DNA of 42,599 nt from Escherichia phage EF2-1, in sequence record PQ571290. One strand, 5' to 3'. Numbering within the stretch: the first letter of the stretch is position 1; every line of letters starts with the position of its first letter. Both the position numbers and the translations under genes were made by a program. Shown here piece after piece: positions 845-873 of this stretch. The notes beneath the pieces are model-generated. The model searched no databases. It was not told the origin of the DNA and saw only the letters and a list, made by a program, of their open reading frames with translations.

Positions 845-873
845 ACTATAATAGCGAACTATTCACTTGTCAA
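845..873 (-). promoter_or_regulatory. sigma70-like leftward promoter TTGACA-17-TATAGT with embedded palindrome ATAATAG-N4-CTATTCA
   Basis: revcomp of 868-873 is TTGACA, 17-nt spacer, revcomp of 845-850 is TATAGT; same architecture at 37502-37530 and 41056-41084. Confidence 0.6.

Follow-up and report, generated by a model that had tools for sequence, protein, structure and literature searches.

Escherichia phage EF2-1 (sequence record PQ571290) is a virulent phage of Escherichia coli, and the 42,599 nt analysed here (the window) represent a nearly complete, 42.6-kb genome of the Kagunavirus type (Guernseyvirinae). At about ten predicted promoters genome-wide, a 14-bp two-fold symmetric element with the sequence AATAG-N4-CTATT (more generally AWTA-N6-TAWT) is laid over the core promoter. 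Its copies are non-randomly distributed, coupled to promoter hexamers and to genes, conserved among related phages and variable in a clade-specific manner. On balance, albeit without great confidence, we take these elements to mark host σ70 promoters that would be occluded by a dimeric phage helix-turn-helix (HTH) protein bound at the shared dyad, the best candidate being a protein that resembles Cro of phage 434.

Exact copies of AATAG-N4-CTATT begin at seven positions (850, 4460, 6051, 14178, 25698, 37507 and 41061) and copies with one mismatch at three more (8710, 15841 and 31921), compared to an expectation of 1.0 for both kinds together, making this by far the most recurrent dyad with 5-bp arms in the genome. 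All ten sites were examined for overlapping hexamer pairs of the form TTGnnn, 16–18 nt, TAnnnT on either strand. Nine overlap exactly one such pair, with a spacer of 17 bp in every case; random positions pass the same test at a rate of 3.2% (P ~4e-13 for nine of ten). A Shine-Dalgarno sequence and start codon follow the predicted transcription start by 19–51 nt in eight of these nine promoters, and none was found for the site at 15841. The remaining copy, at 31921, is located inside a tail gene and is consistent with a chance occurrence, as it lacks promoter hexamers and about one copy is expected.

Relative to the hexamers, the dyad is found in three registers. In the three promoters of class B, the –35 hexamer is followed by 4 nt and the dyad, and the –10 element TATAGT takes the final T of the right arm as its first base, so that the dyad is centered at ~–19. 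The four class A promoters consist of TTGCAC or TTGCAG, 10 nt and the dyad (centered at ~–13), with the last two N4 bases plus CTAT forming the –10 element TACTAT. In the third register (8715–8743 and 15846–15874), N4 plus CT form the hexamer TTGACT and the dyad consequently covers the –35 region, with its center at ~–34. With conserved arms, a variable middle and centers that fall within the core promoter, the element has the symmetry and placement of an operator whose occupancy would be expected to exclude polymerase. Its combination with σ70 elements in several registers further suggests that the dyad is a module separate from them. Measured against the flanks of the dyad, which are slightly asymmetric (TG-AATAG...CTATT-AT), promoters of class A and class B transcribe in opposite directions. 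When sites from many genomes are pooled, N4 keeps TA in class A and is free in class B, a pattern that fits the assigned hexamers because TA is the start of the class A –10 element. Class A hexamers are weak compared to the consensus (7/12).

The three class B promoters, at 845–873, 37502–37530 and 41056–41084 on the minus strand (reverse complements TTGACAAGTGAATAGTTCGCTATTATAGT, TTGACGACCTAATAGCGAACTATTATAGT and TTGACTCCTGAATAGCTAACTATTATAGT, respectively), had been singled out in an earlier note on this DNA as leftward σ70-type promoters with an embedded operator-like palindrome. Their plus-strand letters are exactly those the note had given, and the minus strand indeed reads TTGACA, TTGACG and TTGACT, in that order, with TATAGT exactly 17 bp further on. 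The pattern TTGAC-N5-AATAG-N4-CTATTATAGT matches the 42.6-kb window three times, against 0.00 expected (0 in 100 shuffles). From the –10 elements to the start codons at 813, 37467 and 40998 the distances are 31, 34 and 57 nt, within the 30–100 nt previously claimed, and Shine-Dalgarno sequence and start codon lie 25–51 nt past the predicted start sites. A generic promoter scan returned 873–845 as the top σ70 match of the first 20 kb (11/12) and listed 37530–37502 first among three 10/12 matches in the 20–40 kb segment. Taking together the near-consensus hexamers (TTGACA-like –35 elements, compared to the weaker TTGCAC/TTGCAG of class A), the 17-bp spacers, the downstream translation signals and the conservation described below, the three elements are most likely promoters for host σ70 RNA polymerase.

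Other parts of the earlier description need revision. The spacer does contain a dyad, but the proposed arms ATAATAG and CTATTCA are not complementary and the symmetric core is AATAG-N4-CTATT. Likewise, a genome-wide motif search, as the note had proposed, finds only three copies of the full element, yet the core dyad recurs in at least six further promoters, on both strands and in the two other registers, where the –10 sequence is no longer the TATAGT that unites class B. These additional promoters argue for a genome-wide regulatory site rather than a feature of the replication arm.

The first class B promoter (–35 TTGACA 873–868, 17-bp spacer, –10 TATAGT 850–845, dyad 850–863) faces the gene at 813–556 and those onward on the minus strand, divergent from the gene for the Cro-like protein. 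The second (TTGACG-17-TATAGT, dyad 37507–37520) precedes the minus-strand gene at 37467–37213 and the downstream helicase block. It had been placed in the 3′ end of a VRR-NUC gene and does lie within the last ~20 codons of the open reading frame (ORF) 37469–37798, but the Pfam VRR_NUC match of this ORF is below cut-off; it matches PHROG endonuclease/Holliday-junction-resolvase families. The third (TTGACT-17-TATAGT, dyad 41061–41074) is followed on the minus strand by the gene for a DUF2815/Gp2.5-like single-stranded DNA-binding protein (SSB; 40998–40366) and the DNA polymerase gene.

Two of the class A promoters are on the plus strand, namely 4444–4473 (TTGCAC 4444–4449, TACTAT 4467–4472, dyad 4460–4473 over the –10), upstream of small genes from 4507, and 6035–6064 (TTGCAC-17-TACTAT, dyad 6051–6064), upstream of genes from 6093 toward the lysis cassette. 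The minus strand carries the other two, 14178–14207 (TTGCAG-17-TACTAT, dyad 14178–14191), preceding a small gene at 14151–13867, and 25698–25727 (TTGCAC-17-TACTAT, dyad 25698–25711), preceding the leftward block 25670–23103, which encodes an unknown protein, the product of a 378-aa ORF (DNA repair exonuclease in the annotation of relatives) and a polynucleotide kinase/phosphatase. Both third-register promoters are on the plus strand: 8710–8743, which sits after the lysis-cassette terminator (TTGACT 8715, 17 bp, TATATT 8738–8743; one-mismatch dyad ACTAGTTGACTATT at 8710–8723), and 15841–15874 (TTGACT 15846, 17 bp, TAAGCT; one-mismatch dyad AATAGTTGACTTTT at 15841–15854 over the –35).

For an account of conservation that does not depend on the motif, the SSB promoter was tracked by orthology, anchored on the gene and a conserved hairpin in its 5′ untranslated region (5′ UTR). 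TTGAC(A/T)-17-(–10) keeps its position across the Guernseyvirinae, also in clades whose SSB has diverged to 40% protein identity. Among 23 distinct anchored sequences, mean entropy is 0.07 bits for the –35 hexamer, 1.52 for the 4-nt linker, 0.71 for the left arm, 1.24 for N4 and 0.41 for the right arm. The left arm of class B occupies –25 to –21, positions that are not normally constrained in σ70 promoters, and is conserved although a one-directional operon surrounds two of the three sites. Kagunavirus and Jerseyvirus share AATAG-N4-CTATT at the SSB promoter, and in the Jerseyvirus phages Ent1 and SE2 the same dyad is found at orthologous promoters and, in addition, in a fourth register in which a symmetric divergent promoter pair, TTGCAT-7-dyad-7-CGTCAA, centers it at –16. 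At the same SSB promoter, Shemara (Cornellvirus) has ATTAG-N4-GTAWT and the phiEap-2 group AWTAT-N4-CTATT. A further clade (L157) has five copies of TAATA-N6-TATTA, and the clade comprising L149 and L151 carries a different dyad, TTAGC-N2-GCTAA, in the same place, at no fewer than four promoters and in two registers that differ by 3 bp. Enrichment of the generalised form AWTA-N6-TAWT amounts to 3- to 8-fold in five clades (Kagunavirus, Jerseyvirus, Shemara, phiEap-2 and L157) and is not seen in more distant ones. Most of these copies are accompanied by promoter hexamers in Kagunavirus, Shemara, phiEap-2 and L157, as are half to two-thirds of them in two Jerseyvirus genomes. The class B architecture appears essentially confined to this lineage: of 72 matching stretches in IMG/VR, all but five single matches are on Guernseyvirinae-type contigs, and those five, on contigs without detectable similarity to this phage, are by our estimate about as many as chance would give.

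The hairpin that served as an anchor is a stem-loop with a 5-bp stem at 41030–41044 (minus-strand RNA CCGGGCAGCUCCCGG), between the promoter at 41056–41084 and the start codon at 40998. It is conserved in all Guernseyvirinae clades examined, with compensatory changes in three of the five stem pairs (CCTGG/CCAGG, CCCAG/CTGGG, CTCGG/CCGAG and CCCGG/CCGGG), and may serve as a translational operator or stabilise the mRNA. At the SSB promoter itself, the N4 of the dyad (41066–41069, in promoter orientation) is CTAA here and its reverse complement TTAG in the relatives L001 and L003 and most IMG/VR loci; this may reflect a flip of the palindrome center or simply two substitutions. The 848 and 37505 sites form a similar pair, with TTCG and CGAA.

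A candidate binder is encoded next to two of the dyads. The 71-aa HTH_3/XRE gene at 938–1153 (plus strand; monocistronic, with its own terminator at 1142–1162) adjoins the dyad at 850–863 and a degenerate one at 894–907, which are 44 bp apart, center to center, in the intergenic region. Its product has an HTH_3 domain (E 1e-12), and its best match in the PDB is 434 Cro, a protein of the same 71-aa length with which it aligns end to end (E 5e-7). The operators of 434 are 14 bp long and read ACAA-N6-TTGT; this geometry, the same as in AATA-N6-TATT, counts toward the Cro-like protein as the binder. The degenerate dyad (AATATGGTACCATT, plus strand, two mismatches; AATATGGTACTATT at the corresponding place in phages K1ind2 and Golestan) stands in the class A register before the Cro-like gene and is a putative autoregulatory site. 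Within it, this genome only has a perfect 10-bp palindrome, ATGGTACCAT, at 897–906, where K1ind2 and Golestan read ATGGTACTAT, giving a better –10, TACTAT. Every clade examined encodes a Cro-like protein, whose recognition helix is variable (SQGAINQ in Kagunavirus, SQSLITH in Jerseyvirus, and TQSAISH, SQGRVSH, SQARISH, SQGYISH, SQGCFGH or SQSALSF in others). Over eight clades, the covariation of recognition helix and dyad is compatible with co-evolution, which is suggestive but not decisive. The 938–1153 protein is the most likely binder, and an HTH_17 protein encoded elsewhere in the genome, or another protein, would come second.

If such an HTH dimer binds the dyad, it would block RNA polymerase, and its accumulation would turn down most phage transcription units in the manner of a Cro-like shut-off. 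The order of repression would be set by register and site quality, the dyad being perfect at seven sites, one mismatch away at 8710 and 15841, and two mismatches away at the candidate regulator's own promoter; the gene adjoining two dyads has the weakest copy in front of itself. Repression by occlusion is favored by the variable placement of the dyad, which covers the –10 in some promoters and the spacer or the –35 in others, and because centers at –13, –19 and –34 (–16 in Jerseyvirus) share no helical face, steric hindrance is the simplest reading. Binding of a protein at these sites, its repressive action and its identity are all inferred.

Several observations weigh against this reading. 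The Cro-like proteins of Kagunavirus and Jerseyvirus are only 51% identical and differ in their recognition helices, yet the core dyad is the same in both; Cro-like proteins of the Shemara type that are 98–100% identical accompany somewhat different spacer sequences; and a recurrent dyad is not seen in clades L152 and L166–L172, which nevertheless retain the XRE gene. A search for close Cro-like homologues outside the lineage, in bacterial genomes and prophages, returned only generic XRE proteins of ≤48% identity. As the arms are AT-rich and contain –10-like hexamers (TATTAT, TACTAT), their conservation could partly reflect promoter function. What ties dyad and Cro-like protein together is adjacency, fold and geometry only, and the rationale for a universal repressor in a strictly virulent phage is one that we infer.

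The promoter-like content of the arms also raises the possibility that there is no dedicated binder at all, the dyad being a by-product of two opposed –10-like hexamers, as in bidirectional or overlapping divergent promoters, or of an AT-rich spacer that suits RNA polymerase best and was spread among promoters by duplication. Each arm together with its flank does hold a –10-like hexamer (CTATTAT, TACTAT), the Ent1/SE2 dyad lies exactly midway in its symmetric divergent promoter pair, and the class A sites at 14178 and 25698 are located between divergent genes, with the scan finding a rightward GTTACA-17-TATATT at 25688–25716. We nevertheless consider this explanation unlikely. At three class B sites without an opposite-strand gene, the left arm is kept while linker and N4 vary; the existence of three or four registers does not fit one fixed polymerase contact; and the L149/L151 dyad, TTAGC-N2-GCTAA, occupies the same place despite containing G and C and not resembling a –10 element.

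Equally improbable, in our view, is that the operator is real but bound by the HTH_17 protein or another small phage protein rather than by the Cro-like one. The HTH_17 (AlpA/excisionase-like) gene encodes 84 aa at 3700–3954 on the minus strand and is driven by a predicted promoter (TTGATT-17-TATACT, 4070–4042) that lacks the dyad, a point in favor of this alternative. The gene is found in every Kagunavirus and Jerseyvirus locus covering the region, except for that of the Kagunavirus L130, and in none of the other clades, and at ~80% identity between the two genera its product matches the invariance of AATAG-N4-CTATT better than the Cro-like protein with its 51%. This co-occurrence, however, is essentially a single phylogenetic event. 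L130 (IMGVR_UViG_3300045988_014597) has six exact dyads and no HTH_17 gene, two unrelated ORFs standing in its stead, and in Shemara, phiEap-2 and L157 the gene is likewise missing although AWTA-N6-TAWT is enriched and associated with promoters; for these reasons, the Cro-like protein is ranked first. Moreover, winged helices of the excisionase type usually bind direct repeats as monomers, and not 14-bp palindromes. In L130, the swap at this regulator slot (L130 positions 4445–5030), upstream of the primase-helicase gene, introduced a 47-aa Cys-rich ORF and a 149-aa ORF without a Pfam match, and all dyads were kept.

Next to the HTH_17 promoter, ~400 nt without a convincing ORF (4042–4458) separate the leftward TTGATT-17-TATACT from the class A promoter at 4444. 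In this region, where TTGACA occurs in rightward orientation at ~4087 and a hairpin resembling a strong terminator at 4351–4371, a small RNA or some other non-coding element might be encoded.

Published descriptions of Kagunavirus genomes have interpreted the same sequences differently. Using PHIRE, 20-mers with this dyad were recovered from fBC-Eco01 and labelled phage RNA polymerase promoters, with the consensus tgAATAGTa-ccTATTat-T (PMC9825357), and from VB_EcoS-Golestan, where they were given as "conserved promoter sequences" (PMC7203180). There are seven per genome, TGAATAGTACCCTATTATAT and TAATAGCGAACTATTCACAT among them (PMC9825357, PMC7203180), and the σ70 hexamers, the palindrome, its registers and orientations and a candidate binder go unremarked in both papers. 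In the searchable literature, we found no transcript mapping, transcription start site or binding studies for Guernseyvirinae (Jerseyvirus, Kagunavirus). Promoters read by an RNA polymerase that the phage encodes or modifies, or switched on by an activator at the dyad, would fit the PHIRE hits, the weak class A hexamers and a degenerate dyad that precedes the head-morphogenesis gene of K1ind2 and Golestan without a recognisable –35. Still, we regard promoters of this kind as very unlikely. A scan of ten large ORFs (the seven largest and three from the 23103–25278 block) found no RNA polymerase domain, none is annotated in six related genomes, and the literature label was accordingly rejected. 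Furthermore, instead of an asymmetric sequence of ~20 bp in fixed orientation and distance, the element is palindromic and used in both orientations and three registers. For an activator, centers at –13 and –34 would collide with σ contacts, and steps of 6 and 15 bp do not keep to one helical face, which fits occlusion better.

Least probable of all is a binding site for a host protein or an RNA hairpin: although dyads of the AWTA-N6-TAWT type are shared by phages that infect Escherichia, Salmonella and Enterobacter and the arms could pair as RNA, the motif varies by phage clade and not by host, is replaced by TTAGC-N2-GCTAA in one clade, and the class B architecture is not above chance in unrelated phage contigs. 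Host transcription-factor boxes (ArgR, Fur, OxyR) differ in spacing and arms and were set aside, as was an RNA hairpin, with the dyad lying upstream of the predicted starts, folding energies of only –2 to –5 kcal/mol and a best fold that skips the arms in two of five tested copies.

The proposed occlusion by a Cro-like protein has its closest parallel in the Cro circuits of 434 and lambdoid phages (OR, OL), with which it shares a 71-aa Cro-type HTH protein, 14-bp symmetric sites with conserved outer arms and a variable center, operators that overlap σ70 hexamers, and two sites in a divergent region beside the regulator gene. In EF2-1, however, the sites are dispersed over about ten promoters in three registers instead of being clustered in tripartite OR/OL arrays; the operator sequence is unrelated and binding is only predicted; the phage is virulent, with neither a CI partner nor an integrase; and the regulator gene forms a monocistronic unit that points away from the replication genes, whereas in the lambdoid circuits it is the first gene of the rightward operon. 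Dispersed repressor sites are known from temperate phages, namely the C1 operators of P1, the gp71 'stoperators' of mycobacteriophage L5 and the conserved inverted repeats of phiC31. As there, one short site at many transcription units could allow a single protein to control most transcription. Those sites serve lysogenic silencing, those of P1 and L5 are asymmetric, and those of L5 act within transcribed regions; the sites described here are palindromic, lie on the core promoter and belong to a virulent phage. Lastly, the Lpa-activated late promoters of P1, which lack a –35 and need their activator, carry an inverted repeat located between positions –35 and –10, and thus share a short dyad centered at ~–20 upstream of a good –10. 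Class B promoters, in contrast, have a consensus –35, and the dyad is also found at –13 and –34.

The genome is typical of Kagunavirus in its layout. A leftward replication arm carries genes for an exonuclease, the Gp2.5-like SSB, a DNA polymerase, a nuclease and an SNF2 helicase and, further along, a primase-helicase; the other parts are rightward small genes and lysis cassette, structural genes, and a leftward block inserted at 23103–25670. Phages such as Henuyfy11N and PDP21P8 are ~93% identical to the window across 85–90% of its length. Searches for known RNA families (Rfam) and tRNAs gave no matches in the window. A second recurrent dyad, GAATA-N3-TATTC, is located just 5′ of a TTGAC –35 element at 15827–15839, 6 nt upstream of the hexamer, and at 16610–16622, where it abuts the –35 and is followed by TTGACA and a hairpin, CCGGGTGGCCCGG, upstream of the scaffold gene. 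It occurs four times in phiEap-2 and three times in Shemara, with one-mismatch copies at the corresponding spots in Ent1, is flanked at ~15792–15840 by an array of TTATTCC/GGAATAA half-sites, and may be the site of a different, possibly late, regulator. Close to the class A promoter at 25698–25727, an extended –10 candidate, TGcTAGAAT (25734–25742), points rightward to the tail-chaperone and tape-measure operon (start 25835) and has counterparts at the same spot in K1ind2 (TGaTAGAAT) and in Golestan and phiEap-2 (TGgTAGAAT). Since the dyad at 25698–25711 would lie at ~–45 of this candidate promoter, one bound protein could have opposite effects on the two divergent promoters. Finally, both junctions of rightward structural genes with leftward blocks carry the same perfect 20-bp hairpin, AAGGCCCCTTTCGGGGCCTT (23079–23098 and 35186–35205), the former of which was scored as a terminator on both strands.

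The 20-mers were thus already known, as unexplained PHIRE hits, and so is this kind of control system; what is new is the dissection of the promoters and the naming of a candidate regulator. The circuit is of an ordinary type that had yet to be described in this phage group. Kagunavirus and Jerseyvirus are among the phages most frequently isolated and suggested for use against E. coli and Salmonella in therapy and food safety, and at present the label of phage-polymerase promoters is wrongly attached to their recurrent 20-mers. Although no new principle, the result is a testable map of one genome, with about ten promoters of the host type, a 14-bp operator that they share in three registers, and a specific candidate for the regulator; this map can be transferred to hundreds of sequenced relatives. 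It may be of use for annotation, for engineering (strong portable promoters with a built-in off-switch) and for understanding gene timing in small virulent phages without a polymerase of their own. More tentatively, and with considerable doubt, one Cro-like protein and its roughly ten dispersed operators might be the main timing device of Guernseyvirinae, with promoters shut in an order given by site affinity. If so, graded operators over nearly every strong promoter would time phages that encode neither an RNA polymerase nor a recognisable σ factor, and co-evolution of operator and protein between genera (AATAG-N4-CTATT, ATTAG-N4-GTAWT, TTAGC-N2-GCTAA) could give genus-specific exclusion of superinfecting relatives.

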